Positions 1 to 17,760 of a stretch of DNA of 18,115 nucleotides are shown piece by piece. The stretch's first letter is position 1. The number at the start of each line of letters is the position of its first letter. Source of the stretch: a virus; IMG/VR virus record IMGVR_UViG_3300045988_171219, positions 1 to 18,115 of that record; one strand, written 5' to 3'. Position numbers and translations under genes: made by a program. A model generated the notes under the pieces. That model searched no databases. It worked only from the letters and a program-made list of their open reading frames with translations, and was not told the DNA's origin.

Positions 1-39
1 GCTATTTCAACATCTTAATAATTTAGATGTTGAAATAGC
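1..39. repeat. Terminal hairpin palindrome (15-bp arms, 9-nt loop)
   Basis: GCTATTTCAACATCT (1-15) is the perfect complement of AGATGTTGAAATAGC (25-39). The loop is TAATAATTT (16-24). Confidence 0.9.
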
Positions 40-162
40 AAAGTTAGTTATGTATATACATTGTATATACCCCCATTAATGCCAATACACTGACAATATA
101 GGCAACTGAGAGGCAAGGGGCTAGGGGTAAGTTGGCAATATGGTGGAGGAAATAGTCAAATT

Positions 163-205
163 GCGTTAAAAAGTGGCTGTTATTCATTGGCAATGGTGTT
201 ATAAT
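163..205 (+). promoter_or_regulatory. ITR-L inward-facing promoter (extended -10) with upstream 16-nt motif
   Basis: TGTTATAAT has TG at 197-198 and TATAAT at 200-205. The -35 is weak (CTGTTA 177-182). The motif GCGTTAAAAAGTGGCT (163-178) ends 21 nt before the -10. SD GAGGAGG (221-227) and ATG 236 follow. Confidence 0.55.
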
Positions 206-235
206 ATTTATATCAATTGAGAGGAGGAAAAGCAT

Positions 236-355
236 ATGGCAAATACAATTGATAAATATCTTAATAATTTAGATGTTGAAATAGCATACCTAAAATATGT
301 TGCTGAACAACTAAAATTGTTAAATGAAGAACTAGAAGAAAGCGAGGTAAAATAA
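236..355 (+). CDS. ITR-encoded 39-aa acidic coiled-coil-like protein (left copy)
   Basis: ATG 236 lies 8 nt after SD GAGGAGG. Translation is MANTIDKYLNNLDVEIAYLKYVAEQLKLLNEELEESEVK with stop TAA at 353-355. It is too short for the ORF track, and an identical copy lies at 17761-17880(-). Confidence 0.55.
   Translation: MANTIDKYLNNLDVEIAYLKYVAEQLKLLNEELEESEVK
258..286 (+). repeat. Internal direct copy of the terminal 29-mer (identical to 12-40)
   Basis: ATCTTAATAATTTAGATGTTGAAATAGCA occurs at 12-40 and again at 258-286, inside the 39-aa ORF. Mirrored copies lie at 18076-18104 and 17830-17858. Confidence 0.9.
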
Positions 356-359
356 AATG

Positions 360-387
360 TTGACAATGAAAATTAAAGTGTTATAAT
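360..387 (+). promoter_or_regulatory. Left early promoter (sigma-A type)
   Basis: TTGACA (360-365), a 16-nt spacer, then TGTTATAAT (TATAAT 382-387). It starts exactly at the inner ITR boundary and is followed by SD AGGAG and ATG 414. Confidence 0.6.
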
Positions 388-413
388 TAATATAAGAAAG
401 GAGAAAAGCATAT

Positions 414-689
414 ATGAAAGAATTTAAAAATGTAAAAATTGCAAATGAAGGTATTTTAAAAATGATGAGCGATTTTAAAATAATTATTGATAAAGAAGAT
501 GGAAAAATATCTGGTGTTATGATAAAAGATAATGAAATTAGAATATACGAAATTTTAATGTCTTTAATGATTTATATTGAAAATATGATTATAAATAAAG
601 ATAATGAATTTAAGTTTACTGATTTAATACAAATATCTGCACAATGTTTATCAATAGTAAAAGCATGTGAAAAGAAAGGAGATAACTAA
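414..689 (+). CDS. Early protein, 91 aa, unknown function
   Basis: ORF with SD AAGGAG about 8 nt upstream of ATG 414. First gene after the early promoter. No motif recognised. Confidence 0.6.
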   Translation: MKEFKNVKIANEGILKMMSDFKIIIDKEDGKISGVMIKDNEIRIYEILMSLMIYIENMIINKDNEFKFTDLIQISAQCLSIVKACEKKGDN

Positions 690-690
690 T

Positions 691-1137
691 ATGATAAGAT
701 ATAAAACTATTTATGATTTATATTCTGAGTGGAGCAACAATGAAGAATTACCTGTTAAGATAATTATGTATGATAATGGAGAAGTTTATTATAGAGTTAA
801 AAATGGTGATTTAAATTGTATGTATCAAAATAAATGTGGACATTTATTGTCTTTTACTAATGAAGTTGATAAATGGAAAACAATAATATGTTATTATTCA
901 ATAAATATTCTAGATGAAACAGAAAAGAAATATTTAGAGAGTGTAATAAAACCTTTTAGAAATAAAATTATACATATTGCAAAATACTCATATAGTGTTG
1001 GTGAATACATATCAATATGTTATAAAGATACGAATAAAATTCATGGTTTTATAAATTTACCTAGTTTTAAATCTAACACCATGTATAAAGGTATGGAAAT
1101 TGGTAGAGAGTATAGTTTAAAGGAGTTAGGAATATGA
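691..1137 (+). CDS. Early protein, 148 aa, unknown function
   Basis: ATG 691 is preceded by SD AAAGGAG (676-682). It is preferred over the track's GTG at 667, which overlaps the upstream gene. Confidence 0.6.
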   Translation: MIRYKTIYDLYSEWSNNEELPVKIIMYDNGEVYYRVKNGDLNCMYQNKCGHLLSFTNEVDKWKTIICYYSINILDETEKKYLESVIKPFRNKIIHIAKYSYSVGEYISICYKDTNKIHGFINLPSFKSNTMYKGMEIGREYSLKELGI

Positions 1138-1391
1138 TAACAAATATAAAATTAACTAAAGATGATAAAAAGTTGTTAAAATCAATGAAAGAAAAATACA
1201 ATTGTGAAATTAATATTAAACCTAGGTTAGGAGTATATTTTATAGAAGGTGATAATTTTGAGATATTAAGTAGTATATTATTTATTCTACTTAAAATGTT
1301 AGAAAGGGAAATAACACTAACTGAAACTCAACGTAACATACTGGTAACAGGGTTTGGTGTTTTAAAAGAACGATTAAATGATAGAGGATAA
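1134..1391 (+). CDS. Early protein, 85 aa, unknown function
   Basis: ATGA start/stop overlap with the upstream gene. SD AAGGAG at 1121-1126. Confidence 0.6.
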   Translation: MITNIKLTKDDKKLLKSMKEKYNCEINIKPRLGVYFIEGDNFEILSSILFILLKMLEREITLTETQRNILVTGFGVLKERLNDRG

Positions 1392-1393
1392 AA

Positions 1394-1669
1394 ATGAGAG
1401 ATGTAATGATGATTAGTATCCCAACAAAAACAAGTTTTAAAGATTTGGAAGAATATATTAAAGATTTTAATAATAAATGTGAGGTACAAGCAACATATAA
1501 TTTTAAAGATAGAATCCTTGAACTTGAACATAAAAAAGATAGATGTATTATAGCATGTAATACTATATTAGACGCAATGATTATTCTTCAAGGTGTGTTT
1601 GTTGGAATATTTAAGTATAATGATACTCAAATAGATTTGAGGGGGTTAAAACATGAGAGTAAAAGTTGA
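1394..1669 (+). CDS. Early protein, 91 aa, unknown function
   Basis: SD AGAGGA just upstream of ATG 1394. Tightly packed within the operon. Confidence 0.6.
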   Translation: MRDVMMISIPTKTSFKDLEEYIKDFNNKCEVQATYNFKDRILELEHKKDRCIIACNTILDAMIILQGVFVGIFKYNDTQIDLRGLKHESKS

Positions 1670-1913
1670 TAATTATTACCGAATTGCTTTACCTAAAAGT
1701 GTTTTAGATATGTTAGAAATCAATAAAGGTGATGAATTAAAACTTGAATATGATAGTATTAATAAAGTTATAACTTTAAATAAAGGTGTAATGAAAGATA
1801 TAAAACATTTAATTAAAATGAGACTTAAAAAAGACATAAGTAAAAGTGAAGAAAATTTTTTAATTAATTTACTTAGTGTAAGTGAGGTTAATAATGATAA
1901 AGATAAAAAGTGA
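1653..1913 (+). CDS. AbrB/SpoVT (MazE-like) family DNA-binding protein, 86 aa; candidate phage transcription regulator
   Basis: The N-terminus MRVKVDNYYRIALPKSVLDMLEINKGDELKLEYD fits the swapped-hairpin AbrB/SpoVT signature (R-I-x-L/I-P-K ... GD-x-L). SD GAGGGGG lies upstream of ATG 1653. Confidence 0.6.
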   Translation: MRVKVDNYYRIALPKSVLDMLEINKGDELKLEYDSINKVITLNKGVMKDIKHLIKMRLKKDISKSEENFLINLLSVSEVNNDKDKK

Positions 1914-2103
1914 TTTTAACGAAGATACAGAACTTGTAGATGTTAATTTTGAAATGAGTAATAGTTCTAATGGTGAGGTTATTAGTGTGGTATGTGTATT
2001 ATATGAATTTTTACTAGAACATGGTAAAACTACAAAAGATATTGAAAGAGAAGTTATAGAAATGTTAAAAACTAGTAAAGATAGAAAGCGAGATAATAAA
2101 TAA
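1894..2103 (+). CDS. Early protein, 69 aa, unknown function
   Basis: ATG 1894 follows SD GAGG (1884-1887). It is preferred over the track's GTG at 1882. Confidence 0.55.
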   Translation: MIKIKSDFNEDTELVDVNFEMSNSSNGEVISVVCVLYEFLLEHGKTTKDIEREVIEMLKTSKDRKRDNK

Positions 2104-2339
2104 TGAATATAGCAATTATATTATTAGCGTTTACTACAATAATTAATGCACTTCATATAAGTTATATTTATAAAGAATTATCAAAAAGAATTGATAAAGA
2201 ACGTATGTATTTAATTGATTTAATACATAATAGATGTAATCAAACTGAATATGAAATTGGTGTGAATATACAAAAAATAATAAATGATATTAAAAGTGGT
2301 AAATTAAAGAAAGACCCTAATAAAAAGAAACAAGATTAA
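2103..2339 (+). CDS. Small membrane protein, 78 aa (N-terminal TM helix, basic C-terminus)
   Basis: TAATG stop/start overlap with the upstream gene. MNIAIILLAFTTIINALHISYIY is a hydrophobic helix. Last gene before the terminator. Confidence 0.5.
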   Translation: MNIAIILLAFTTIINALHISYIYKELSKRIDKERMYLIDLIHNRCNQTEYEIGVNIQKIINDIKSGKLKKDPNKKKQD

Positions 2340-2357
2340 TTGTTTCTTTTATTTTTT
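2323..2357 (+). terminator. Rho-independent terminator of the left early operon
   Basis: An 11-bp stem pairs AAAAGAAACAA (2323-2333) with TTGTTTCTTTT (2340-2350) around a 6-nt loop, followed by ATTTTTT. Confidence 0.7.
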
Positions 2358-2361
2358 GTAT

Positions 2362-2407
2362 TTTAGTTAACATAATAAATATTATTTAGTTAACATAATA
2401 AATATTA
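2362..2407 (+). repeat. Two perfect tandem 23-bp repeats upstream of the late promoter (candidate operator or activator sites)
   Basis: TTTAGTTAACATAATAAATATTA occurs at 2362-2384 and 2385-2407. A third, partial unit (TTTACATAAAC) begins at 2408. Each unit contains ATAATA-AA-TATTAT dyad symmetry and a GTTAAC palindrome. Confidence 0.85.
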
Positions 2408-2436
2408 TTTACATAAACACGAACGTATGTTATAAT
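2408..2436 (+). promoter_or_regulatory. Late operon promoter (near-consensus sigma-A type)
   Basis: TTTACA (2408-2413), a 17-nt spacer, then TGTTATAAT (TATAAT 2431-2436). SD GAGGTGG (2444-2450) and ATG 2456 follow directly. Confidence 0.6.
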
Positions 2437-2455
2437 TATATTAGAGGTGGATAAT

Positions 2456-2782
2456 ATGAAAGATGAAGAATACAACAATTTATTAGAAGAAGTTGTAAAA
2501 GATGATACTAGTATTGAACGAAAACTAGAAATATGTAAAACATTGCAAGATGATAGAAAAGCAAGTTTAGACGCATATCAAGAGTTAAGTGATAATACTG
2601 GTAAGTTACAGGCAGATTATAAAGCCTTGAAAAATCAAAAGGTTACAGAGTTTTTTAATTCTGGTGTTAAAGTTGAGGAAAATACTCAAATTTTAGGAGA
2701 TGAAGAAGATGATGAACCTAAAGAAAAAACTTATGATGAAATTGTTGATGACATGTTAGGAGTGAGTGAAAATGCCAACTAA
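2456..2782 (+). CDS. Scaffolding protein (phi29 gp7-like), 108 aa
   Basis: Acidic, helical protein directly upstream of and overlapping the capsid gene. As recalled, the N-terminal half runs parallel to phi29 gp7 (EE..LL......ER..E....L......Y..L....KL.A). ATG 2456 with SD is preferred over the track's GTG at 2447. Confidence 0.65.
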   Translation: MKDEEYNNLLEEVVKDDTSIERKLEICKTLQDDRKASLDAYQELSDNTGKLQADYKALKNQKVTEFFNSGVKVEENTQILGDEEDDEPKEKTYDEIVDDMLGVSENAN

Positions 2783-4094
2783 GGCAGAAACAAATGGTGT
2801 TGCAATGCTTAATAGCATAAGACAGGCTATTATTGGACAATCTAACGAACTTAATTTTGCTGACAGAATACCTTTAGCAACTCAAGCAAATATTAAAGAG
2901 TTTGGGGCTAGTCTTATGGAATATGAACCCGCTATTAATGCGTTTGTAAACGAACTTGTTAATCGTATAGGATATACGTATATAACAAGAAAAAATATGA
3001 CTAACACCTTAAAATTTTTGAAAAAAGGTAAGTTAGATTTTGGAGATACTATCCAAGATATTATGGTTGATATTGCTAAAGCACATACATTCGCAAGTGC
3101 ACCAAAAACTGGTGAAGAATGTGATGTATTCGCAGTAAATAAACCTGATGTAAAAGTAGCATATTATAGTGTTAATAGAGAGGACCAATACCCTATTACA
3201 ATTAATGAAGATATGTTAAAAATGGCTTTCATGAGTTATGATAAATTATCAAGATTTGTTTCTAGTATTCTTGATAGTGTATATAATGCTGATGAAGTTG
3301 ATGAATTTATTCTATTTAAAAATTTAATTGGTAAGACATTATCTAATTCTTATTTAGTTAAAGTTGATAAACCTATTGATAGAAACACCGCTGAGGCTTT
3401 TAGTGAAAAAATGAGAACATACTCATATGCTATGAGTTTTCCAAGTAGAAAATATAACAGAGCGGGTGTAGCAACTAGAACTAATTTAGAAGAACAATTA
3501 CTAATTATGCGTTCTGATATCGCACCTGTAATTGATGTTAGACAACTTGCTAATAATTTCCAATTAAATTATGGTAAACCTTTAGCGGGAAGAATTGTTC
3601 TTGTTGATGATTTTGGAGATTTTAGTAATATTCTAGGTGGTTTAATTGATAAAGATTTTGCGATGATATATGATGTAACATATAAAATGACTAGTCAATA
3701 CAATGCTAGACACCTATATTGGAATTATTTCTTAACTCATAGACAAGTAATTGCTTCAAGTTTTTATGCTAATGCAGTTGGGTTTACAACAGAAGATGTT
3801 GTATTTGCAATTAATAGCATAAATATAGAACCTAAAGAACAATCTATAAGAAAAGGATATAATGGAAGTGTTGATGTTGTTGTTGACTTTACTGGACAAG
3901 GGGATACATCTTATACATTAACTATAAGTGGTAATGTTTCAAATGCCACTAAGATTGAACAAGACGGAAAAATCTATATTGGTGCTGATGAAACCGCTAG
4001 TGCTATCACTATCACAGCCACAAGCACAGCAAAATTTGGAACTAGTGAACCGAAACCTGTTACTGGTACGGCTAGTGTAAAGGTTAAAAATTAA
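2772..4094 (+). CDS. Major capsid protein (phi29 gp8-like) with C-terminal Ig-like (Big_2-type) domain, 440 aa
   Basis: Several blocks parallel phi29 gp8 as recalled: IPLATQANIKEFG, VNRIGYTYI, SFVSSILDSVYNADEVDEF, LYWNYF and FYANAVGF. The last ~90 aa (YTLTISG...ITITATSTA...ASVKV) look like a Big_2 domain. SD GGAG at 2759-2762; start ATG 2772. Confidence 0.9.
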   Translation: MPTKAETNGVAMLNSIRQAIIGQSNELNFADRIPLATQANIKEFGASLMEYEPAINAFVNELVNRIGYTYITRKNMTNTLKFLKKGKLDFGDTIQDIMVDIAKAHTFASAPKTGEECDVFAVNKPDVKVAYYSVNREDQYPITINEDMLKMAFMSYDKLSRFVSSILDSVYNADEVDEFILFKNLIGKTLSNSYLVKVDKPIDRNTAEAFSEKMRTYSYAMSFPSRKYNRAGVATRTNLEEQLLIMRSDIAPVIDVRQLANNFQLNYGKPLAGRIVLVDDFGDFSNILGGLIDKDFAMIYDVTYKMTSQYNARHLYWNYFLTHRQVIASSFYANAVGFTTEDVVFAINSINIEPKEQSIRKGYNGSVDVVVDFTGQGDTSYTLTISGNVSNATKIEQDGKIYIGADETASAITITATSTAKFGTSEPKPVTGTASVKVKN

Positions 4095-5941
4095 TGGTAA
4101 TTAGACCAACGAACGAGGTGCGTATCTATAAGAACGTACCTTTTTCAATAGATTATAAAAATATTATGGACTTTAGTTCGGTGGCGGAACAGAGTGCATA
4201 TTTTAATTCTTTACCTCAAAAGACATTTAGTAATTTAACATATACTAGAAATAATGGTACAATTATAGTTAATGGAAATCGTGATACATTACTTGATTAT
4301 AATTATATGTCTTTTGTTAATAAAGATTATGGAAATAAAACATTTTATGCTTTTATTACCAATGTTAGATATTCAAGTGCTAATGCTTCATATATAGATT
4401 TTGTAATTGATGAGTGGCAAACATGGTGTTTTGATGTTAATTTTAAAGAAAGTTTTATTGAAAGAAAACATTGTAAAAGGTGGAATAGCGACGGAACACC
4501 CGTAATAAATACGCAAGATGAGGGACTAGATTTTGGTAGTGAATATATTGTAAAAGACCATAGAGAATATAATAACAATCTTTATTGGGTGTGTTATGTT
4601 ACTAGTGTTGAAAATTATGACGCCATTTATTCAAGACCAAAAGATATACCCAACCAATTAGCGGTATTTTATGCCCCAATATATAAAACAACTAATAACA
4701 CGATTGCACAATGGAAATTAGGTGATGTCTATATGGCTTCACATGACACTATTACCAATAGATTTAGGAATAGTGATAAGTTAGTTAATAGGTTAAAAAG
4801 TGTTTTCATAGTAAGTGAACCCCCGTTTAGTTATACTTATACAATAAGTGGTGGCTATATTAATGTTACATCTAATGATTTAAAAGTTACTAAAATTCAA
4901 TGGGGGAGCGAAGAAACCTATTCAATAAATATGGGATATTGGGTAAGTAATAAAAACCCCGCTAACACTTTAAGAACTTTTCCAAAATATGGTAATTTAA
5001 AAAATAATATTACTGAAAGTAAATTATTAATGTTTCCGTATTCATATGTTCAAATTGTAGACGGACAAGGAAATAGTTTTGATATTAAAAATGAATATCT
5101 AGACGATACACAAATAAATGTTCGTACATTTACAAGTGGTGGGTTAAATAGTAAACAAGCCCATATAGTTGAACATTATAGATATAAAGGTGTCAACTTG
5201 AATTATTGTAGGTGGGAACTAGGTAATGGTGTTATTAATAATTTTCCTAATAATTTAACAATTATTGATGACTATTCGGCAGCATACTTGCAAGGAAATG
5301 CTAATCAAATTAATCAATCTGTTAATGCAACACTTAATCAATCTCAACTTAATAATGTTTTAGCACAAAATACAGCAAGGGCTAGTCAATCGGCTTCACT
5401 TGTTAGAGGTGTTGGTGATACTATTGGTGGTGGAATAGTTCAACCTTTAGTGGGTGCTGGTGGTGGAATTAAAGCCTTAGGAGATTATACAGCAACTGTT
5501 ATTACTAGTGAACAACAAGTTGAAAATACTGAATTACAAGGTAATTTAACAAGTGAAAATGCTGTTAAAAGTGCTTTAGCAAAAAAACAAGACGCCCAAA
5601 ATGTGGCGGATAATGTTTCTCTACAAGGTGGAGATGTATATTTTACATTTCAAAATCAATATAATGGTTATTGTCTTGTTTATAAACAAATATCTGATGA
5701 ATACATAAGAGTGTTAGAAGATTATTTTAAAAAATATGGCTATGCATATAATAGAATAGAAACACCACTTTTACGTACTAGAAAATCGTGGGATTATATA
5801 AGATGTATAGACGCAAATATAACGGGGAATATTAATGAAAATTCCTTAGAAAAAATAAAAACTATATTTAATCAAGGTGTAACAATATGGCACACTACTG
5901 ATGTTGGTAATTATAGTTTAAATAATGATGAAAGGACATAA
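4094..5941 (+). CDS. Tail knob / distal tube protein (phi29 gp9-like), 615 aa
   Basis: Blocks colinear with phi29 gp9 as recalled: NVPFSIDYKN, DYGNKTFYAFIT, FKESFIERKH..WNSDGTPVINTQDEGLDFGSEY, ESKLLMFPYSY, DDYSAAYLQGNANQ, YFKKYGYAYNRIE..LRTRK and IFNQGVTIWHT..VGNYS. Confidence 0.9.
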   Translation: MVIRPTNEVRIYKNVPFSIDYKNIMDFSSVAEQSAYFNSLPQKTFSNLTYTRNNGTIIVNGNRDTLLDYNYMSFVNKDYGNKTFYAFITNVRYSSANASYIDFVIDEWQTWCFDVNFKESFIERKHCKRWNSDGTPVINTQDEGLDFGSEYIVKDHREYNNNLYWVCYVTSVENYDAIYSRPKDIPNQLAVFYAPIYKTTNNTIAQWKLGDVYMASHDTITNRFRNSDKLVNRLKSVFIVSEPPFSYTYTISGGYINVTSNDLKVTKIQWGSEETYSINMGYWVSNKNPANTLRTFPKYGNLKNNITESKLLMFPYSYVQIVDGQGNSFDIKNEYLDDTQINVRTFTSGGLNSKQAHIVEHYRYKGVNLNYCRWELGNGVINNFPNNLTIIDDYSAAYLQGNANQINQSVNATLNQSQLNNVLAQNTARASQSASLVRGVGDTIGGGIVQPLVGAGGGIKALGDYTATVITSEQQVENTELQGNLTSENAVKSALAKKQDAQNVADNVSLQGGDVYFTFQNQYNGYCLVYKQISDEYIRVLEDYFKKYGYAYNRIETPLLRTRKSWDYIRCIDANITGNINENSLEKIKTIFNQGVTIWHTTDVGNYSLNNDERT

Positions 5942-5945
5942 TTTT

Positions 5946-6821
5946 ATGATAGCAAAAAAGTTAAAAACAAATGCCCAAGCAAGAAATAATCGTGTTTATA
6001 TTCATAATGTAAAACGATTATATAAAAAGGCTATATCTATGTTTGAGTGGGTAAATATGCCTAAGGAAATAGATACTAGATACTTAGAAAAAACTCTTGT
6101 TGAACAAGGACATATATGTTTCTTTAAAGATGAAAAATTAGATAAATTTATGTGTTTACAATGTACAATCGGTGGTAGGTTTAATGTTTATGACCTACCT
6201 ACTGATTATCATGTGTATACACCTAGTGGATATAATAGAGACCTTGATATGTCTAATAGTGTAGTAATTTATTCTGATTTAGCACATGATAATTTAATGC
6301 CTGTGATATATTATCACGCAGAAAATATATCTAATGTAGAAAGAACTATTGATATAAATCTTAATCAATTAAAAAGACCTTACGTATTCTTAGTACCTGA
6401 AAATAAAATATCAAGTGTTAAGGCACTTTTCAAACAAATTAAAGATAATGAAGAATTAATTATTGGTAGTAATGATTTAAGTGTAGAGGGTTTATCAATA
6501 GAAAATACGATAACACCTAATAACACAATTGATTTATACACATTAAAGAAAAAATATTATAATGAAGCACTAACTGATTTAGGTATATCAAATTTTTCTG
6601 ACGATAAAAAAGAACGTCTTTTAGCGGGTGAAATAACTAGTAATGAAGAAGATGTTTATCTAAACAGAGCCAATATGTTGGAAGCAAGAAAACAAGCATG
6701 TAAATTAATTAATGAAATGTTTGGACTTAATATTGATGTTAAATTTAGATATGAAGAAAATGTAACAATGGACGAAATAGATGAAACTGAAGATTTAGAC
6801 GAGGTGAAAAATAATGAGTAG
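5946..6821 (+). CDS. Portal / upper collar connector (phi29 gp10-like), 291 aa
   Basis: Blocks parallel phi29 gp10 as recalled: FEWVNMPKEID.RYLEKTL, VVIYSD, KKERLL.GEITSNEE and ARKQACKLINEMFGLNIDVKFRY. ATG 5946 with SD AAAGGA (5931-5936) is preferred over the track's ATG at 5925. Confidence 0.88.
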   Translation: MIAKKLKTNAQARNNRVYIHNVKRLYKKAISMFEWVNMPKEIDTRYLEKTLVEQGHICFFKDEKLDKFMCLQCTIGGRFNVYDLPTDYHVYTPSGYNRDLDMSNSVVIYSDLAHDNLMPVIYYHAENISNVERTIDINLNQLKRPYVFLVPENKISSVKALFKQIKDNEELIIGSNDLSVEGLSIENTITPNNTIDLYTLKKKYYNEALTDLGISNFSDDKKERLLAGEITSNEEDVYLNRANMLEARKQACKLINEMFGLNIDVKFRYEENVTMDEIDETEDLDEVKNNE

Positions 6822-7548
6822 ATACACATTAAGATTATCTGATGTATGCGAGATGTATTATGCTGGACGTGAAAAAGAACTTAATAATAGTAGTTTAACT
6901 GAACTTTTAGATAATGGACTTACACCCTTAGAAAATATATTTGAAGTACCTACACCTGATGAGATAATTGAATATGCAAGACCTAAAATTTTTGATTTTG
7001 ACTACCCACTTCCAAATAATAGTGTGGACAAAAAGAAAGAACTTGAAACAAAAATTTTAAAACATTATTATACAAGGGAACTAGGTGCTGACTCATGGGG
7101 TGTATTTAAATTAAGATTAAATGAAAGATTAAATTTAATAATGCCTTACTTTAATGATTTATATAAGACAATTGATTTAATGAACGATAACCCATTAATT
7201 AATAATGAAATAACAGAAACTAAAAATACTAAAAATAGTAATACCAATAGTGGGCAAGCAAGTGCTAACTCTACATCAAACGCTAAAGAAGTATTTCAAA
7301 ATACTCCGTCAAGTCAAATTGGTGATGTTGACTATGCCACCACTATAACAACAAATGAAAATTCTACCACTGATACAAGCGAAAACTCAGGCACTAGTAG
7401 TGGTAATGAAGATATGATAAGAACAATTAGAGGTTTATCAAATTACTCTAAACAAGACATGATATCAAGATATCGTGAAAATATTATAAATGTGGAAGAA
7501 GCAATAATAAATGAACTTTATGATTTATTTCTTCTAATTTATAGTTAG
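6814..7548 (+). CDS. Lower collar protein (phi29 gp11 position), 244 aa
   Basis: Assigned by synteny, lying immediately after the portal gene. SD GAGGTG upstream. Contains a Ser/Thr/Asn-rich central segment. No motif independently recognised. Confidence 0.55.
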   Translation: MSRYTLRLSDVCEMYYAGREKELNNSSLTELLDNGLTPLENIFEVPTPDEIIEYARPKIFDFDYPLPNNSVDKKKELETKILKHYYTRELGADSWGVFKLRLNERLNLIMPYFNDLYKTIDLMNDNPLINNEITETKNTKNSNTNSGQASANSTSNAKEVFQNTPSSQIGDVDYATTITTNENSTTDTSENSGTSSGNEDMIRTIRGLSNYSKQDMISRYRENIINVEEAIINELYDLFLLIYS

Positions 7549-7560
7549 TTATGATATAAT
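7532..7560 (+). promoter_or_regulatory. Possible internal promoter ahead of the fibre genes
   Basis: Extended -10 TGATATAAT (7552-7560) is identical to the 9-mer at 16504-16512. The -35 is weak (TTCTAA 7532-7537) at 17-nt spacing. It lies in the 29-nt gap after the lower collar gene. Confidence 0.35.
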
Positions 7561-7577
7561 AAAATTGAGGTGATAAT

Positions 7578-8222
7578 ATGAATAATCTTAATATATTTTT
7601 TAATAAAAATCATGAAATGGTATTAAATAATGACGTATCACTAGAAGCAATTACTAGTAAAGTAGTTGATTATCTAAATTGTTTAATAGACCGAGAAAAT
7701 GAATTATTAAAAATGTTTGAAAACTTAAAAACAGAAACAAATACATCTATTACAGATTTAAGTAATGCTTTATCTGAATTTGTAAGAGAGCAAAAATCTA
7801 ATTATTTAATTTTTGAAACTGAATTAATAAATAGTCTAGTGGAATATAAAAACGATACAGATAAAGAAATAACTGATAAATCTAATGAAGTAGATAATGC
7901 TTTAAATAATATAGATTTAACTGAGGCTGTAAGTAGTTATTTTACATCACAACTTAATACTGATTATTTTAAAAATTTATATCAAACAATCGTAAAAAGT
8001 GTATATGTTTTAGCAGATTATAGTAGCAACCCTAATATTACATACAATAGTGCTTACTATTATAATACAACTGAAGATGTATTATATTACAAGCAAGGAA
8101 GTGTAGTAAAAGCACTAGATTTACTTGAGAGTTGTTTTTATTATTTTAATGGACATTTATATGTAGTAATAGAAGAAAATGGTAAAAAAGTTTTAAGAGA
8201 GGGTGTTATAACTAATGGATAA
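7578..8222 (+). CDS. Tail/neck fibre-associated protein, 214 aa (coiled-coil N-terminal half)
   Basis: SD GAGGTG upstream of ATG 7578. Lies between the collar gene and the large fibre gene. The heptad-like N-terminus resembles that of the next protein. Confidence 0.45.
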   Translation: MNNLNIFFNKNHEMVLNNDVSLEAITSKVVDYLNCLIDRENELLKMFENLKTETNTSITDLSNALSEFVREQKSNYLIFETELINSLVEYKNDTDKEITDKSNEVDNALNNIDLTEAVSSYFTSQLNTDYFKNLYQTIVKSVYVLADYSSNPNITYNSAYYYNTTEDVLYYKQGSVVKALDLLESCFYYFNGHLYVVIEENGKKVLREGVITNG

Positions 8223-9768
8223 ATACAAGGCGTGGATATCTTCTTTAACACCCTTAGATTTTGCAAATGAAAAATCTTTGGAACAAATTATTTATGAACT
8301 TATTCCTATATTAATGGAAATTAAAAATAATCAAGATAGTAAAACAACAAGTTATGATATATTTTTAACTGATTTAAAGAAAAAAATTAATGATATTAAA
8401 ACAACTATAACTATAAGTAAAACAGAATTTATAAATAGAGAAGATGAAATAAAAACGAATATTTCAAGTAAAGAGCATGAAATAAGTTTAAATATTTTAA
8501 ATAGATTTACGGAAATATTAGATAAAATTAATAATTTTGGAGATAGTTATTTTACTAATAACCCTGATGTATTTACTAAGGGTATATTAGATGTTGCGTT
8601 CTTACTTAGTAATAATACTACACCTTATTCTAAGTGGAATAAAGAAGATAAAGGAATTTATGATACTAATGTTAATTTAGTGGATATTGTGTCTACTCCA
8701 CCCCTTGAAGCAAGTGGATATAGATATTGTACAAGTGATAAACAAGTTTATTATGGAGACCATATCACTACGGACGGACAAATCAATAAGTTAGTAAAAT
8801 ATAAAAATAATGTTCTTTATAAAAAAGCATATGGTGTTTTACAAGAAAAATTATTTCCAACAGGCGAAAATGGATATTTTATAGGTTTTTGTGATATTAA
8901 TAATGCGTGCTTTTTTGCTTCTTCTGTAAGTGGAAGTGAAACAACATACTCAATTAAAATGATTAATTTAACTACTAAAGAATTAACACGATATGAAAAT
9001 TTAGTAATGCCAACTGGTTTTTCAAATGTTTATTTAAGTAACAATAATCATTATATTATTAAAAAATTTAATGAGTATTATTTTATGTTTTATTTAAAAA
9101 CTGGCGAAACTATTCCATACATTGCTAAGTCAACTGATTTAATTCACTGGGCAAATGTAGGTAGTATTGGTGCAACTGGTTTAATAACTCTCAGAGTATG
9201 TAATAATAACTTATATATAACTACTTCATCTTTCGGGTCATACTTATATGATGAAGTAAATAACAAATTTGATAAAGTAACCTATGATAATAACGAAGTA
9301 ATAATTATTGGTGAAATTGAAGAAAATATAGTGTTTGTACCTACCACGGGTGGAAGTATTTATTCAACATCAGACAAAAACTTAGCAAACGCAACTATTT
9401 TTAAAGGTGGTACATATTATGCAACTGGTAATGTTAATAGACTAGAATTTAGTAAAAATGAAAACCTTTTTACAATTTTAGGAGAGCCATACCAATTACA
9501 ATATGATATCTTAAGTGTAATGTATATAACTAATCACGGATATCCTATACATAATATCGAGTTTAGTAACCTTAATGCATTTTTTAACATAGATGATAAA
9601 ACTCTATATTCTATTTATAGTATAAGAGGCTCTGTTAAATATTATCCTACCAAATTTGATACACCTTTTATAGGAGATATTGTTATCAATGAAAATGGAG
9701 ATATTTACGATGATAAATATTTACAAAAACTAGAAATAAAAACTGAGTGGGAGTATTTAGGCAGATGA
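8215..9768 (+). CDS. Tail fibre / appendage receptor-binding protein (phi29 gp12 position), 517 aa
   Basis: Assigned by synteny. Has a coiled-coil N-terminus and a beta-rich C-terminal ~350 aa with Asp-box-like strings (KSTDLIHW, YSTSDKN) that suggest a beta-propeller fold. Confidence 0.55.
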   Translation: MDKYKAWISSLTPLDFANEKSLEQIIYELIPILMEIKNNQDSKTTSYDIFLTDLKKKINDIKTTITISKTEFINREDEIKTNISSKEHEISLNILNRFTEILDKINNFGDSYFTNNPDVFTKGILDVAFLLSNNTTPYSKWNKEDKGIYDTNVNLVDIVSTPPLEASGYRYCTSDKQVYYGDHITTDGQINKLVKYKNNVLYKKAYGVLQEKLFPTGENGYFIGFCDINNACFFASSVSGSETTYSIKMINLTTKELTRYENLVMPTGFSNVYLSNNNHYIIKKFNEYYFMFYLKTGETIPYIAKSTDLIHWANVGSIGATGLITLRVCNNNLYITTSSFGSYLYDEVNNKFDKVTYDNNEVIIIGEIEENIVFVPTTGGSIYSTSDKNLANATIFKGGTYYATGNVNRLEFSKNENLFTILGEPYQLQYDILSVMYITNHGYPIHNIEFSNLNAFFNIDDKTLYSIYSIRGSVKYYPTKFDTPFIGDIVINENGDIYDDKYLQKLEIKTEWEYLGR

Positions 9769-10073
9769 AAATAGAAAAAATGAAAAATCTATATTGGTTA
9801 ATTGGGGTAGTAGCAAGTATTTTAATAATTATTATAACTAATACGTGGAAGTTATCAAAATATCATGAAAAAATAGATAATGCATATAATGAAATATTAG
9901 TAACTATTAAGACTAATGAACAAATGAGTTTAAAATCTATTATATGGAACGATAGTATTCCTATTAGTGATAGATTATCAGCATGTGATATCTATATTCA
10001 AAAAGGTTATAATAGTGTTACGAAAAAACATTGTGAAATTGCTCTATCGAATTACTCAGATAAAAATGTTTAA
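9765..10073 (+). CDS. Holin-like membrane protein, 102 aa (single N-terminal TM, possible dual start MKIEKMK)
   Basis: ATG 9765 follows SD GGGAG (9750-9754). The TM helix is LYWLIGVVASILIIIITNTW. Its position just upstream of the lysins, and the two Met codons separated by Lys residues, resemble holin/antiholin dual starts. Confidence 0.45.
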   Translation: MKIEKMKNLYWLIGVVASILIIIITNTWKLSKYHEKIDNAYNEILVTIKTNEQMSLKSIIWNDSIPISDRLSACDIYIQKGYNSVTKKHCEIALSNYSDKNV

Positions 10074-10086
10074 TACGGAGGTTTTT

Positions 10087-10263
10087 ATGAAAATATTAGA
10101 AAATTTAATTAAAGTAAAAACAATTATAACTCTAGCAACTACTGGTTTATTTATCTATTTAGCAATAAAAGAGATATTACCCGTAGAAACTTCTAGTATG
10201 GTTATCGGCATGGTTTTTACATATTATTTTAATAAAGATAAAAATAAAAATGAAAGTGAGTGA
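10087..10263 (+). CDS. Small two-TM holin-like protein, 58 aa
   Basis: ATG 10087 follows SD GGAGG. The two hydrophobic helices are TIITLATTGLFIYLAI and SSMVIGMVFTYYF, with a charged C-terminus KDKNKNESE. The track ORF from 9967 overlaps the previous gene and lacks an RBS. Confidence 0.55.
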   Translation: MKILENLIKVKTIITLATTGLFIYLAIKEILPVETSSMVIGMVFTYYFNKDKNKNESE

Positions 10264-10269
10264 AGCGTA

Positions 10270-11073
10270 ATGAAAGCAATATATTTTGCTAAAGAAATGA
10301 GATTAAGTCAAGGGTACAATAATGGAAATCATAAGCGTCATGTACCTTTTGACTATCCAATTGATGAAACTTATAATAAACCTAATGGTGTTTTTTATGC
10401 ACCTTTTGATTGTGTGGTAGTAAAAAAGTATAAATCACGTTCTAATCAAATATGGATAACAAGTGTAGAACCTGTTTATACACCAACATTTACTGATTAT
10501 GTTACTATACTTATTGGGCATATTTCACCAAAAGAATTTGATAAAATTAAAGTTGGTGATTTATATAAACAAAAATCACCAATAGTACATGAATATAAAG
10601 ACGGACTATCCACTGGACCTCATAATCATGTAACAATGGGGCGTGGTAAACTAGGTAAAGCATGGAGTGAACACAATGGTGTATGGTGTATTAATACCAC
10701 GGGTGGTGCTAAAAAGCCCGAAGATTGTCTTTATATTGACCCTGATTTTACTAAAATAATTGATAATAAAGGAATAATGTTTGAATTTTTAGATAGTCCA
10801 CACGAACATAGTAGATATTATACATGTATATATGATATGTATATTAATAAAGATATGAGTTTTAATAATCATCAAAAGGTTAAAAATTGCACCCCTCAAA
10901 TGAAACGTGCCTTAAAATATAAAGAACCTAACGCTGATGCAGTAATTAGAAAAGGAACTACCATAACCGCTTTAGATATTATTGATAAAGGAGATATCAT
11001 GTGGATAAAAAATTATAATGGATATGTTTGTTTAAAAGGTAAAAAAGGATATTACCTAACGGAGTATAAATGA
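10270..11073 (+). CDS. Endolysin candidate: M23 (LytM-type) metallopeptidase with C-terminal SH3b-like wall-binding domain, 267 aa
   Basis: M23 signatures HxxxD (HVPFD) and HxH (GPHNHV) are present. The C-terminal ~70 aa (AVIRKGTTITALDIIDKGDIMWIKNYNGYVCLKGKKGYYL) are SH3b-like. Confidence 0.7.
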   Translation: MKAIYFAKEMRLSQGYNNGNHKRHVPFDYPIDETYNKPNGVFYAPFDCVVVKKYKSRSNQIWITSVEPVYTPTFTDYVTILIGHISPKEFDKIKVGDLYKQKSPIVHEYKDGLSTGPHNHVTMGRGKLGKAWSEHNGVWCINTTGGAKKPEDCLYIDPDFTKIIDNKGIMFEFLDSPHEHSRYYTCIYDMYINKDMSFNNHQKVKNCTPQMKRALKYKEPNADAVIRKGTTITALDIIDKGDIMWIKNYNGYVCLKGKKGYYLTEYK

Positions 11074-11675
11074 AGCAAAATCAAAAAATGAGGGGAAAAA
11101 ATGGTTTACAAAATGCCTTATTTCCTTTACAAACACTTAGTTGTTCGAGAGGTAGCCATAAAGGTGATGACTACGCATACGATTTTGTAGGATATAAGGG
11201 CGGAGTTAAAACCCCCGATTGTCCTATGTATGCTCCTTTTGATTGTAAAGTAGTCTATAAAGGAAGTAGTGATGAAAAAGAACCCACGATTGTATGGCAG
11301 AGTATAGAAAAAGTAAATTTTGTAAATGGTGAAGTTGATTATATGTGTATAAGTGTTTCTCATGATGATAATTGGAAAAGTTATAATATAGGTGATACAC
11401 GTAAACAAGGAGAACACTTCGCCAATACTGGGGAGACGGGATATGCTTTTGGAGACCATACACATATGATATGTGGTAAAGGTGTTTTTGATAATTTTTA
11501 CATAACACCAATGGGTGCTTATACACTTAAAAATCAATATGATATGCCTCTATGTTTAGGTGTTAATGATACTATTATTAGAGATACTGGTGGGTTTACG
11601 TGGAGTGAATTTAAAGTAGATAAAAAAGATATAATGCCACTATCATTATGTGGTGCTTTAAAATGGAGTGTGTAA
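11070..11675 (+). CDS. Second M23 (LytM-type) metallopeptidase, 201 aa, no wall-binding domain (possible tail-associated lysin, phi29 gp13 analogue)
   Basis: ATGA overlap with the upstream gene. Has HxxxD (HKGDD) and HxH (GDHTHM). It shares YAPFDC.VV with the upstream M23 protein. Confidence 0.65.
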   Translation: MKQNQKMRGKNGLQNALFPLQTLSCSRGSHKGDDYAYDFVGYKGGVKTPDCPMYAPFDCKVVYKGSSDEKEPTIVWQSIEKVNFVNGEVDYMCISVSHDDNWKSYNIGDTRKQGEHFANTGETGYAFGDHTHMICGKGVFDNFYITPMGAYTLKNQYDMPLCLGVNDTIIRDTGGFTWSEFKVDKKDIMPLSLCGALKWSV

Positions 11676-11678
11676 TTT

Positions 11679-12671
11679 ATGCCTGAAAGTTTTTATTATA
11701 GTCCTCAAAAATTACTTACATATAACTATCTATGGAATATGGTTATCGGAGAACGTGGTAATGGTAAAACATATGCTATGAAAAAATATTTTATTAAAGA
11801 TTTTATAAAAAATGGACATCAATTCGTTTGGATAAGAAGATACGAAACTGAATTTGATGATTTTAAAGAATTTTTCTCTGATATTATAGCCAATAATGAA
11901 TTTCCAAAATATGAATTAAGTGTTAATGGAAAAAAGTTATATTGTAATGGTAAAGTTATGGGTTTTGGTATACCTTTATCAAAAGGTATTACTAAAAAGA
12001 GTGTTAATTATTCTGGTGTAACACATATATGTTTTGATGAATTTTTAATACCTAGAGGTTCAAGTTATCATTATTTAAAAAATGAGGTGTTTCGTCTTTT
12101 TGATTTATACGAAACAATCGCACGTACAAGACGGGTTAAAATGTTTATGGTTGCTAACTCAATAAGTCAAAATAACCCTTATTTTAGAGAATTTAATATT
12201 CGATTAACGGGAGAATTTACTAAAGTAAATGAACAAGTTATTGTTGAAACTACCAATAGTGTTAATTATAGACAATATAAAAAGCAAACAGATTTTGGAC
12301 GTCTTGCTTCACTTACTGGTTATTCAAAATACGCTATTGATAATGATTTTGTGGAGGATAATTATAATTTTATTGAAAAAAGAACTCCTGAGGCAATAAA
12401 CAGATTTAATATTCAATTTGATAAAATAATGTTAGGTATATGGATAGACACTAAAAATGGTAAATTATTTGTATCAAATAAATATAATCCTGAACTTCCT
12501 GTTTATTGTATAACCGTGGACCATTTAAAACCTAATTATCTAATTTTAAAATCTAATTCACACTTTATGAATATGTTAAAAAATGCTTATGAATATGGAT
12601 ATATTTATTATGAAAATCTAAAAATAAAGGGTTATATGGAAAATGTCCAAAAGTATTTGAATATAAAATAA
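11679..12671 (+). CDS. DNA encapsidation (packaging) ATPase (phi29 gp16-like), 330 aa
   Basis: FYYSPQKLLTYNYLWNMVIGERGNGKTYAMKKY contains Walker A (GxxGxGKT), and ICFDEF is Walker B-like. Nearly colinear with phi29 gp16 as recalled and of similar length. Confidence 0.9.
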   Translation: MPESFYYSPQKLLTYNYLWNMVIGERGNGKTYAMKKYFIKDFIKNGHQFVWIRRYETEFDDFKEFFSDIIANNEFPKYELSVNGKKLYCNGKVMGFGIPLSKGITKKSVNYSGVTHICFDEFLIPRGSSYHYLKNEVFRLFDLYETIARTRRVKMFMVANSISQNNPYFREFNIRLTGEFTKVNEQVIVETTNSVNYRQYKKQTDFGRLASLTGYSKYAIDNDFVEDNYNFIEKRTPEAINRFNIQFDKIMLGIWIDTKNGKLFVSNKYNPELPVYCITVDHLKPNYLILKSNSHFMNMLKNAYEYGYIYYENLKIKGYMENVQKYLNIK

Positions 12672-12685
12672 TAATGTGTTATAAT
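12657..12685 (+). promoter_or_regulatory. Promoter-like element P1 overlapping the end of the ATPase gene
   Basis: TTGAAT (12657-12662), a 17-nt spacer, then TGTTATAAT (TATAAT 12680-12685). Confidence 0.4.
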
Positions 12686-12691
12686 ATATAA

Positions 12692-12773
12692 AGGGAGAAG
12701 TTACGCTATATGCTTTTATCCGTTTAACTTTTTTAATCTCCCTAAGATATAACTATATGTTATATCCTTTTTT
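12692..12773 (+). ncRNA. Small RNA unit 1 (~80 nt), or alternatively the structured 3' UTR of the late operon
   Basis: A long imperfect hairpin pairs AGGGAGA (12692-12698) with TCTCCCT (12737-12743) and AAGTTA (12698-12703) with TAACTT (12725-12730). The terminator at 12746-12773 follows. No credible ORF, only a 5-codon ATG frame. Confidence 0.3.
12746..12773 (+). terminator. Rho-independent terminator (late operon / sRNA unit 1)
   Basis: Stem GATATAAC (12746-12753) pairs with GTTATATC (12759-12766) around loop TATAT, followed by CTTTTTT. Confidence 0.7.
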
Positions 12774-12774
12774 C

Positions 12775-12803
12775 TTGACTTAAAAACTTTTATATGTTAT
12801 ATT
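12775..12803 (+). promoter_or_regulatory. Promoter P2
   Basis: TTGACT (12775-12780), a 17-nt spacer, then TGTTATATT (-10 TATATT 12798-12803). It abuts the preceding terminator's T-tract. Confidence 0.55.
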
Positions 12804-12809
12804 ATAGAT

Positions 12810-12944
12810 ATGAAACGGGTAAATAAGCACGCATAACACAAGTTCTTATTTCTCTATAAAACCTAACCTGAAAAAAGTTGAATTTCTCTATACCCGTTTC
12901 ATCTATTAATCTATATGAAAAAGCAACTGATAAGTTGTTTTTTC
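12810..12944 (+). ncRNA. Small RNA unit 2 (~135 nt); pRNA candidate by adjacency to the packaging ATPase
   Basis: A 12-bp closing helix pairs ATGAAACGGGTA (12810-12821) with TACCCGTTTCAT (12891-12902). Two CU-rich direct repeats ATTTCTCTATA lie at 12848-12858 and 12882-12892. The terminator hairpin pairs 12917-12928 with 12933-12944. No SD-preceded ORF. Confidence 0.45.
12917..12944 (+). terminator. Terminator-like hairpin ending sRNA unit 2
   Basis: GAAAAAGCAACT, loop GATA, AGTTGTTTTTTC form a 12-bp stem with one G-T pair. The 3' arm itself is T-rich. Confidence 0.5.
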
Positions 12945-12954
12945 ATTTGTAATA

Positions 12955-12983
12955 TTTACATTAATACAAACATTTGTTATAAT
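12955..12983 (+). promoter_or_regulatory. Promoter P3
   Basis: TTTACA (12955-12960), a 17-nt spacer, then TGTTATAAT (TATAAT 12978-12983). Confidence 0.6.
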
Positions 12984-12989
12984 ATAAAT

Positions 12990-13076
12990 GGTAACATCTT
13001 ACCTCGAGTAACTTTCATGTGTTACCTAAACCTTAAGAAATCTTAAGAACATTTAAGAAATCTTAAGGTAATTTTA
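12990..13076 (+). ncRNA. Small RNA unit 3 (~87 nt)
   Basis: The 5' hairpin pairs GGTAACA (12990-12996) with TGTTACC (13020-13026), with alternative pairings involving TTACC (12999-13003) and GTAAC (13008-13012). A long terminator hairpin at 13030-13069 follows. Confidence 0.45.
13030..13075 (+). terminator. Rho-independent terminator ending sRNA unit 3
   Basis: ACCTTAAGA (13030-13038) pairs with TCTTAAGGT (13061-13069), and TCTTAAG (13041-13047) pairs with TTTAAGA (13052-13058, with one G-T pair). Loop is AACA and the tail is AATTTT. The stem is built from two 15-nt direct repeats of TTAAGAAATCTTAAG. Confidence 0.55.
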
Positions 13077-13117
13077 GTTAAAGTGTGGCTTTTATTTTAT
13101 CAATAAAGTGGTATATT
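13075..13117 (+). promoter_or_regulatory. Replication-operon promoter (extended -10 plus 16-nt motif)
   Basis: The motif copy TAGTTAAAGTGTGGCT (13075-13090) ends 21 nt before TGGTATATT (-10 TATATT 13112-13117). This is the same geometry as in the ITR promoter. Confidence 0.45.
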
Positions 13118-13121
13118 TAAT

Positions 13122-13272
13122 TTACAAGCAGAAAAAATATAAGTATTTAAGAGTATAACTCTTTTGTACTTAACAAAATCTTTAAGGGAGTTTTGGCAAA
13201 AATTTCTGCTTGTAATATTAATTAATATTTATCCCTTAGAAAAATTTTTAAATGAAAGCGAGGTGAGAACAA
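13122..13272 (+). promoter_or_regulatory. Structured 5' leader of the SSB / terminal protein / polymerase operon
   Basis: A 13-bp stem pairs TTACAAGCAGAAA (13122-13134) with TTTCTGCTTGTAA (13203-13215). Nested hairpins pair 13140-13145 with 13167-13172 and 13149-13153 with 13159-13163. Loop segment TAAGGGA (13183-13189) is complementary to TCCCTTA (13232-13238). An AU-rich stretch leads to SD GAGGTGA (13260-13266). Confidence 0.45.
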
Positions 13273-13686
13273 ATGAATAACATGTTGACAGTTATGGACG
13301 AAATGCAAGAAGCCTCTAAACAAACTTATTGTTCTATGTTAATAAATAATGAAGAAGATAAGAAAAAATTGTTTAATCTTTTAGGTAATAGTGATACAAG
13401 AGTTAGTGATAACTTAGATAAAACTATTTCATTAAAAGATGTAGTGCTTCAAAAATTCCCAAAAGTTGATGAAGAAACAGGGGAACTAACATATAGTGTT
13501 CGTGTAATCTTAGTTGATAAAGACGGAAAAACTTACGCTAGTGGGTCAAGAGGACTTTATAGAAGTGTTTTACAACTTATTCAATTAGTTGGTGAACCTA
13601 ACACATGGACTAACCCTATCGACATTAAAGTTGTTGAAACTAACATTAAAAATGGTGGTAAAACTTTTGTAATCAAGACAATATAG
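13273..13686 (+). CDS. Single-stranded DNA-binding protein (phi29 p5-like), 137 aa
   Basis: First gene of the replication operon. As recalled, the C-terminal ~100 aa are colinear with phi29 p5 (FN....S..NL.D.TI ... I...DG..Y...S ... L..LV ... KVV......G..F). Confirmation by HHpred is needed. Confidence 0.55.
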   Translation: MNNMLTVMDEMQEASKQTYCSMLINNEEDKKKLFNLLGNSDTRVSDNLDKTISLKDVVLQKFPKVDEETGELTYSVRVILVDKDGKTYASGSRGLYRSVLQLIQLVGEPNTWTNPIDIKVVETNIKNGGKTFVIKTI

Positions 13687-13700
13687 TATTTGTTCTTACC

Positions 13701-13734
13701 AAGGGGTATAGTAATATATACCCCTTTTATTTTT
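13701..13734 (+). terminator. Intra-operon terminator or attenuator between SSB and terminal protein genes
   Basis: A 10-bp GC-containing stem pairs AAGGGGTATA (13701-13710) with TATACCCCTT (13717-13726), followed by TTATTTTT. Confidence 0.6.
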
Positions 13735-13748
13735 AGGAGTTTTAGAGC

Positions 13749-14807: not shown

Positions 14808-14808
14808 T

Positions 14809-16506: not shown

Positions 16507-16512
16507 TATAAT
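16483..16512 (+). promoter_or_regulatory. Promoter P4, embedded in the last codons of the polymerase gene
   Basis: TTTACA (16483-16488), an 18-nt spacer (or TTACAA with 17 nt), then TGATATAAT (TATAAT 16507-16512). The TG of the extension is part of the TGA stop codon. Confidence 0.55.
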
Positions 16513-16517
16513 AGATT

Positions 16518-16681: not shown

Positions 16682-16724
16682 AGTTTTCAAAAATATCGAA
16701 CCCCCCTTTATAGAAAAAATTTTT

Positions 16725-16883: not shown

Positions 16884-16895
16884 TTTTATGATAAT

Positions 16896-17759: not shown

Positions 17760-17760
17760 T

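Follow-up and report, generated by a model that had tools for sequence, protein, structure and literature searches.

The DNA analysed here (the window: positions 1 to 18,115 of IMG/VR record IMGVR_UViG_3300045988_171219, 18,115 bp) reads as the complete-looking linear genome of an uncultured phage, and both arms of its inverted terminal repeat (ITR) hold a complete small early gene together with the signals for its expression. Comparison with relatives indicates that this arrangement is derived. With a probability that we put at about 0.72, the gene-bearing part of the ITR is a recent, lineage-specific, end-to-end copy, laid over an older and shorter repeat that left the gene in single copy. 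The phage itself is, judging by its gene content, a phi29-like, terminal-protein-primed podovirus (Salasmaviridae-type), an assignment made because major capsid protein, tail knob, connector, gp16 ATPase, a candidate terminal protein and B-family polymerase were all found.

A complete early gene in both arms of the terminal repeat

Positions 1–361 of the window are the reverse complement of 17755–18115 without a single mismatch, the identity ending at 362, exactly as a preliminary description of this DNA had stated. The complete expression cassette claimed there is likewise present in each arm. Reading inward on the left, it consists of an extended −10 element TGTTATAAT (197–205, plus strand; mirrored at 17911–17919), a ribosome-binding site GAGGAGG (221–227; mirror 17889–17895) placed 8 nt ahead of the ATG, and an open reading frame (ORF) of 39 amino acids (aa) at 236–355 on the plus strand. 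Its right-hand counterpart (17761–17880, minus strand), which the gene order of relatives marks as the ancestral copy, is the first gene of the right-end operon. There it is followed by a 119-aa gene (17400–17759, minus strand) whose ATG (17757–17759) lies 1 nt past the TAA of the small gene, and the operon closes on a terminator-like hairpin (16899–16923, minus strand). The left copy runs into a different context: a left early promoter, TTGACA-16-TATAAT with TG (360–387, plus strand; consensus score 12/12), which is present in the left arm only, is conserved in relatives, and precedes a 91-aa gene (414–689) and the downstream genes assigned as its operon. When two arms agree perfectly within one contig, part of that agreement can come from the assembler having collapsed the repeat.

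Inward-directed elements of putative promoters, TGTTATAAT and its mirror, thus stand inside both arms. No recognisable −35 accompanies them, and the consensus promoter scan missed them. The ITR promoter is nonetheless credible because its TG-extended −10 is conserved: relatives keep it as TGATATAAT, TGGTATAAT or TGTGGTATACT, even where the sequence upstream is unalignable.

Relatives carry the gene once and their repeats end in different places

The comparison drew on about ten relatives available as whole or end-containing contigs, namely IMGVR_UViG_3300045988_173088 (hereafter 173088; L010/L001/L045), L015–L017, L040–L044, L046 and L047, which share the gene order of the window and have polymerases 72–98% identical to its own. 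The small gene is single-copy in every relative in which the region is present (173088/L045, L016, L017, L040, L041, L042, L044, L046 and L047) and always heads the inward operon at the polymerase-proximal end as its first gene.

The gene-bearing extension, in contrast, is not family-wide, and comparison of ITR length and content places the end of the ancestral repeat at window position 155. In clade A (173088, L016 and L017), alignments of arm against arm put the ITR boundary at window-equivalent 155: past GGAAATAG, the right arm goes on with TCAAATTGCG and the left arm with AAATGTGAAA. The Logan contig L047, which is 95.7% identical to the right arm of the window and matches its gene order, begins at window-equivalent 126, that is, k−1 (30 nt) before 156. 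In clade B (L044, with both ends; also L042, L011, L015 and L040), the ITR spans the promoter and stops right after the −10 TGTGGTATACT, so that one ITR-borne promoter would serve both early operons; the Logan contig L040 begins exactly 30 nt before this second boundary. The left arms of relatives continue past 155 for some 80 nt, which contain three to four TGTGAAA(T/A)TT repeats (the TGTGAAAT array) and ...AATAAATGGTTGACA (or ...ATTATATTGACA).

The array sits upstream of the left early promoter (L016, 55–110; L045, 110–165; L017, 95–150; L043, 45–100), which raises the question of whether it might be an operator or a nucleation site for a DNA-binding protein. The TGTGAAAWTT motif, looked for in the window, is not enriched there.

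How the extension would have arisen

Aligned with these relatives, the repeat of the window resolves into an old and a new part. The ancestral core, common to both arms in relatives, occupies 40–155 on the left (plus strand) and 17961–18076 on the right (minus strand); it opens with AAAGTTAG, an AAAG terminus of the phi29/Cp-1 type, and holds a conserved GTATATACCCCCATTA. The extension follows at 156–358 (plus strand) as a copy of the right-end promoter, ribosome-binding site and small gene, whose original, the sole copy in relatives, lies at 17758–17960 (minus strand). On the left arm this right-arm segment replaces the roughly 80 nt with the TGTGAAAT array, and the conserved left promoter follows directly. 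The two sequences meet at an imperfect microhomology, AAATG(G)TT (right ATAAAATGTT, left ATAAATGGTT), beside the −35 of the left promoter; here stands the GTT common to both window arms (359–361), of which 359 is A on the left arm of sister assemblies.

A single illegitimate event would have produced the extended ITR. Most likely, the strand-displacing polymerase of the phage, after copying the right end inward, jumped at the microhomology to the left end of a second molecule; a pair of crossovers, the first in the old ITR and the other at the microhomology, would yield the same product. There is precedent for phi29 polymerase switching templates in vivo, with subgenomic molecules as the result (Murthy et al. 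1998, as cited in PMC4974454). A join that damaged the TTGACA would not have been viable, which would account for the clean edge. The preliminary description had taken the coincidence of the inner edge with functional signals as a feature of the cassette. In the window the last bases of the repeat do include the TT of TTGACA on one arm and the ATG of the second right-end gene on the other, but this follows from the site of the join, at the microhomology, together with the requirement that the left promoter survive; in a sister assembly the edge lies at 358. The outcome would be two gene copies and a doubled number of templates for the mini-protein. Because there is no terminator within 1–800 of the window, the left ITR promoter could also read through into the left early operon as a second, upstream promoter.

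The 39-aa gene and its protein family

Homologue comparison identifies the 39-aa ORF as a real gene under purifying selection. The frame had been expected to be conserved with synonymous-biased variation, and such a bias was found: nine distinct sequences together have 9 changes at 18 synonymous sites versus 7 at 72 non-synonymous sites (Fisher p = 4e-4), and other frames of the ORF do not display it. An identical protein is encoded in L046, despite 6 synonymous differences and 0 non-synonymous ones, and in L047 (3 and 0). In the more distant clade the mini-protein retains 86–89% identity, versus 42% for the terminal protein, 50% for the capsid protein and 72% for the polymerase; over the whole comparison its identity ranges from 86 to 100%. 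By these identities, its gene is among the best conserved of the group, ahead of those for polymerase and capsid protein.

The family extends further. With the 43-aa version of a relative as query, 14 protein clusters were matched, mostly on contigs of 18.1–18.9 kb, and another five members, distant ones of 38–45 aa, came from searching 1.84 billion representatives with a profile. Taken together, the members are 38–51 aa long, share the core (I/L)DxE(I/V)AY(L/F)KYVxEQLKxLNEEL and are encoded by the first gene at the genome end; the distant ones share the end-proximal layout of promoter, ribosome-binding site and gene. AlphaFold predicts one helix over residues 2–38 (predicted local distance difference test score, pLDDT, 90), and hydrophobic residues at heptad a/d positions can be read from the sequence (I5, L9, L12, I16, L19, V22/A23, L26, L29 and L33), followed by an acidic tail. 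The mini-protein probably works as a coiled-coil dimer or a partner-binding helix. Its variable C-terminal residues are encoded where the next gene already has its ribosome-binding site and start. Searches with the small protein returned no matches in Pfam or among PDB sequences, and in PHROG only family 3335 at E of about 0.06–0.09, too weak for use. The mini-protein would be a very early product, and the role that we favour, unproven as it is, lies in host takeover or in organising early replication.

Two observations concern the neighbourhood and records of this family. In several relatives (L015, L040, L042 and L044) the gene after the mini-protein encodes an OB-fold single-stranded DNA-binding protein (SSB; PF00436), beside the phi29-type SSB; the window instead has the unrelated 119-aa gene at 17400–17759, and in general the end-proximal early operons are highly mosaic (42–60% identity or absent), versus 93–100% identity for structural genes. 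In L054 (201–320), the database protein P0038 ends in W, at a TGA that table 11 reads as stop. This terminal W either is a gene-caller artefact (a code with TGA as Trp) or hints at genetic code 4 in some of the hosts that the phage group infects.

Independent assemblies and alternative readings

Three further contigs of the same strain, built by two other assemblers and showing one mismatch in 3,450 nt, bear on whether the duplication exists outside a single assembly. The MEGAHIT k119 contig L012 starts at window 240. Two Logan k31 contigs from SRR6474215, L013 on the left and L014 on the right, each start at 329 of their own arm. These starts lie exactly k or k−1 before a graph branch at 359; both junctions, that of the ORF end with the left promoter and that of the ORF end with the 119-aa gene, therefore exist in reads. 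In L012, 119 nt or more of the ORF adjoin the left early promoter on its upstream side, and thus belong to the left arm. The complete selected gene lies wholly inside both arms (236–355 and 17761–17880), its left copy backed by independent contigs from 240 on. On the left arm of the sister assemblies, 359 is A (AAAATATTGACA) versus G in the window, so that the repeat in those assemblies measures 358 bp and only the right arm has the ATG. With the G of the window, the duplicated ribosome-binding site and ATG create a 9-codon mini-ORF, MLTMKIKVL (357–386, plus strand), which overlaps the left early promoter; the sister assemblies read ATA there, without this mini-ORF.

That the left copy might be an assembly artefact, the cassette being confined to the right end while the assembler reused a repeat edge or joined two co-occurring strains, is a possibility that the preliminary description itself had raised. 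The arms of the window are exactly equal in length and sequence, as would be expected of one collapsed edge placed twice, all other relatives are single-copy, and the hairpin tip described below means that the contig ends hold at least one suspicious join. We nevertheless regard an artefact as very unlikely: both junctions were recovered by two further assemblers (MEGAHIT, k = 119; Logan, k = 31), those assemblies differ from the window at 359 and so are not copies of the same contig, and neither the window nor L012 contains the TGTGAAAT array that relatives have on the left arm alone. Since independent contigs break exactly one k-mer away from 359, the extension is not an assembler's invention. 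Also very unlikely, in our view, is that the conserved block within the ORF is a DNA element (an origin, packaging or protein-binding site) and not coding, its additional copy at 15–39 reflecting a role in cis. The block AATTTAGATGTTGAAATAGCATA is near-invariant as DNA, with one base change (ATA to GTA) in L042/L044, and each arm of the window has three occurrences of the motif, versus 0.01 expected. Set against this, the variation of the block is biased towards synonymous changes in the plus frame only; the promoter and ribosome-binding site ahead of it are conserved, also where the flanks are unalignable; relatives confine it to one end, as would not be expected of an origin element; the peptide and not the DNA is kept in distant homologues; and the terminal copy is present in the window contig alone. 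A DNA-level constraint within the ORF was rejected on the same grounds, the seven codons without synonymous change not being significant (p ~0.13 by rough estimate).

A different question is whether the extension is adaptive and maintained, an early gene in both arms being selected for dosage or for its expression from whichever end enters first, with the arms homogenised by panhandle or strand-switch repair, as the preliminary description had suggested. Congenial to such a view are the exceptional conservation of the small gene and its constant end-proximal position, the 0 differences between arms over 203 nt, and the behaviour of the old cores. In L016, L017 and L044, the overlapping parts of the arms are identical within each genome, yet differ between genomes, a pattern compatible with concerted evolution of the old ITR core. 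However, of about ten lineages only one shows the duplication; that of L047, the nearest right arm to lack it, is 95.7% identical, which makes the event young; and the loss of the conserved left-arm repeat array along with the extension looks like collateral damage rather than design. Homogenisation is also not strict, for the arms of 173088 (L045) differ in a 14-nt patch (AAGGGTAAGTTGGC versus AAAACCTTGTTGCC) and a few other bases; either these arms are truly non-identical or the assembly mixes strains. The second allele of the patch is also found in the left arm of L043. Arm identity can, moreover, be the work of assembler collapse. On balance we consider selective maintenance unlikely, and the active homogenisation that had been deduced from perfect identity is not needed for 156–358, where recency and assembler collapse suffice.

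A recent end-to-end copy therefore remains our preferred account, with several points weighing against it. Arms without a mismatch do not tell recency apart from ongoing homogenisation. The microhomology is short and imperfect, and the exact crossover point and mechanism are not provable from it. The extension is seen in one lineage only (the window and the SRR6474215/ERZ27293935 assemblies, 1 base differing in 3.4 kb). The twofold coverage of 40–358 and the linkage of 156–239 to the left arm come from graph behaviour and not from reads, and the ITR promoter, without its −35, is a predicted one.

The outermost 39 bases

Outside the ancestral core, the contig bears a terminal hairpin tip at 1–39, mirrored at 18077–18115 by identity of the ITR, in which 1–15 pair with 25–39 (dG −14.5 kcal/mol, z −7.5). 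Positions 15–39 are an exact copy of ORF bases 261–285, and 9–14 resemble ORF 255–260 bar one base, the very base that perfects the hairpin. Directly inside the tip, at 40–47, stands AAAGTTAG, then ...ATACCCCC. Known relatives start their genomes with three identical bases and the core 5′-AAAGTA (PMC6266182), and the genome of Cp-1 starts AAAGCATGTACTCCCCC. The contig starts GCTA, and the rule of three identical first nucleotides (sliding-back) fits only if the true end is at 40. The contigs of the best relatives reach out to window-equivalent 45 and 47, and the tip is absent from all relatives.

Positions 1–39 are thus probably, with about two chances in three, a template-switch or fold-back product outside the packaged genome; if so, the true ITR measures about 319–322 bp. 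Two switches would account for the tip, one from the genome end (the AAAG terminus) to ORF position 285 and then a fold-back at the quasi-palindrome. It could have arisen in vivo or during amplification, been caught at the contig tip, and been mirrored along with the collapsed ITR. Simple de Bruijn closure of a long palindrome, considered as an explanation for the contig end, would fit poorly, since the fold-back arm has 14 nt, below any realistic k−1. That the 39 nt are genuine packaged DNA, giving the genome new physical ends outside its AAAG origin made from an internal gene copy and a fold-back arm, seems to us quite improbable. Were the tip genuine, it would imply non-canonical priming or protection of the ends, or a role in cis for the GATGTTGAAATAGC motif (three times per arm), and it would be a natural capture of terminus remodelling by polymerase template switching in a protein-primed genome.

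Genome type and other features of the window

The window has a GC content of about 27% (range about 24–30%), and its minus-strand coding is confined to 16911–17880, the remaining genes lying on the plus strand. In order, the latter include the phi29-type major capsid protein (2766–4094; PF25622, E = 1.5e-87), the tail knob (4094–5941; PF20934, E = 1e-57), the connector (5925–6821; PF05352, E = 2e-49) and then the lower collar, the gp16 packaging ATPase (11679–12671; PF05894, E = 1.2e-72) and the phi29-type SSB (13273–13686). A 352-aa ORF at 13749–14807 is the candidate for the terminal protein: its position directly upstream of the polymerase gene fits, and its matches are weak (PF05435, E = 1.8e-4 and 21.6 bits, below the Pfam cut-off of 25; phrog_6358 ‘DNA terminal protein’, E = 6.9e-7). 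The protein-primed family-B DNA polymerase itself (14809–16506) is recognised by PF03175 (E = 2.7e-62) and phrog_1907 (E = 3.4e-146).

Cultured phages are distant. Megablast of the whole window against them gave no match, and polymerase identity to them reaches at most 45%, the top matches being Hungatella phage CH17P1 and the Bacillus Nf group. As comparators for the ITR, CH17P1 (a partial record with another layout) was uninformative, and the record of Enterococcus phage Athos ends without a usable ITR. A distant-similarity search with the ITR returned only generic promoter- or RBS-like matches (RBS, ribosome-binding site), an exact-motif scan of an IMG/VR collection that lacks the window itself found the already known relative plus chance matches in large contigs and nothing else, and a search with the central 517-aa protein of the window yielded a single central Logan contig with no genome ends in it.

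Several features elsewhere in the window deserve mention. About 20 nt upstream of the ITR −10 lies a AAAGTGGCT motif (170–178, plus strand), a candidate regulator site that recurs three times at 16793–16883. The latter falls within the intergenic region after the polymerase gene (16725–16885), which is dense in repeats: a palindromic TAGTAACACTTGTTACC occurs five times and GTGAAAATGTGGCT three times (Tandem Repeats Finder scores 120 and 152). A near-identical GCGTTAAAA(A/T)GTGGCT stands in the ITR at 163–178, just upstream of the ITR promoter, and similar motifs are found at 13082 and in the ITR of the relative L042; the GCGTTAAAA-type motif may be a regulator-binding site common to the genome ends and 16725–16885.

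Directly after the ATPase gene, a structured RNA at 12806–12945 (folding z = −5.6) is a candidate resembling the packaging RNA (pRNA). It follows a promoter TTGACT-17-TATATT (12775–12803), is closed by a long helix (AUGAAACGGGUA...UACCCGUUUCAU) and has a terminator hairpin at its end. An Rfam scan of the window at E up to 1, pRNA family included, found nothing relevant. An 86-aa early protein (1653–1913, plus strand) has a SpoVT/AbrB-type domain (MazE_antitoxin, PF04014; E = 5.6e-7) and is likely an early transcription regulator. A perfect 23-nt tandem repeat of 2.2 copies (2362–2411) occupies the gap ahead of the scaffold-like and capsid genes, and AAATCTTAAG is present four times at 13028–13067, upstream of the operon for SSB, terminal protein and polymerase.

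Terminal repeats that grow: comparison with known systems

Descriptions of protein-primed phages usually treat their long ITRs as static origins that code for nothing. Within one gene-order family, we find three states: the repeat ends before the promoters, after a shared promoter, or after the whole first gene. The newest junction is still readable and offers a natural, dated case of ITR growth in which promoters and genes can be swept in. The doubled template and the extra promoter may or may not benefit the phage. The comparison also flags a family of tiny, highly conserved, end-proximal early proteins as candidates for host takeover or replication. For metagenomic phi29-like contigs, ITR length and ‘perfect identity’ call for read checks, and contig tips can carry template-switch products.

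Growth of terminal repeats by end-to-end copying, with genes among the copied sequence, is familiar from poxviruses, Streptomyces linear plasmids and end-duplicated adenovirus mutants. These replicons are unrelated to the phage and share no sequence relationship with it, and all bar adenovirus and the linear plasmids replicate differently.

Among phages, the phi29/Nf/B103 group has the same set of replication and packaging genes as the window, and its AAAG terminus resembles window 40–47 (PMC6266182). Unlike the window, its members have ITRs of 6–8 bp (5′-AAAGTA) with no promoter or gene in them, and their polymerase and terminal-protein genes lie at the left end on the opposite strand. In C. 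perfringens phages the ITR measures 25–30 bp (PMC3362512). Closer in this respect is Cp-1 (Streptococcus, Salasmaviridae), like the window a protein-primed podovirus with a long ITR (236 bp annotated) and AAAG followed by a C-run at its start. In Cp-1 the −35 boxes of inward early promoters lie inside both arms and the −10 boxes just past the annotated edge, the start of PE5 having been mapped at the right end; there too, therefore, the ITR edge adjoins promoter signals. It differs from the window in that no coding sequence is annotated in its ITR, no ORF of at least 30 aa occurs in the similar region of about 360 bp, and its polymerase is less than 46% identical. Lactococcus phage asccphi28 has the longest ITR among the cultured phi29-like phages checked (577 bp), with putative inward promoters P2 and P7, one in each arm, ahead of different first genes, the same logic as in clade B (L044). 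Unlike in the window, no coding sequence is annotated in that ITR, the two ORFs found there have no ribosome-binding site, and the gene order is another one. For Av-1, computed terminal similarity extends over about 210 bp, with no gene in it.

The preliminary description had set the gene-bearing ITR apart from those of known relatives, and this stands, given that no coding sequence is annotated in the ITRs of asccphi28 and Cp-1 or in the terminal similarity of Av-1. A promoter within the ITR, by contrast, is not a new feature, inward ITR promoters being already annotated in Cp-1 and asccphi28. ITR-borne promoters and ITR edges beside promoter boxes are thus already known, and what is new with respect to the cultured genomes checked is a complete, selected gene in both arms.

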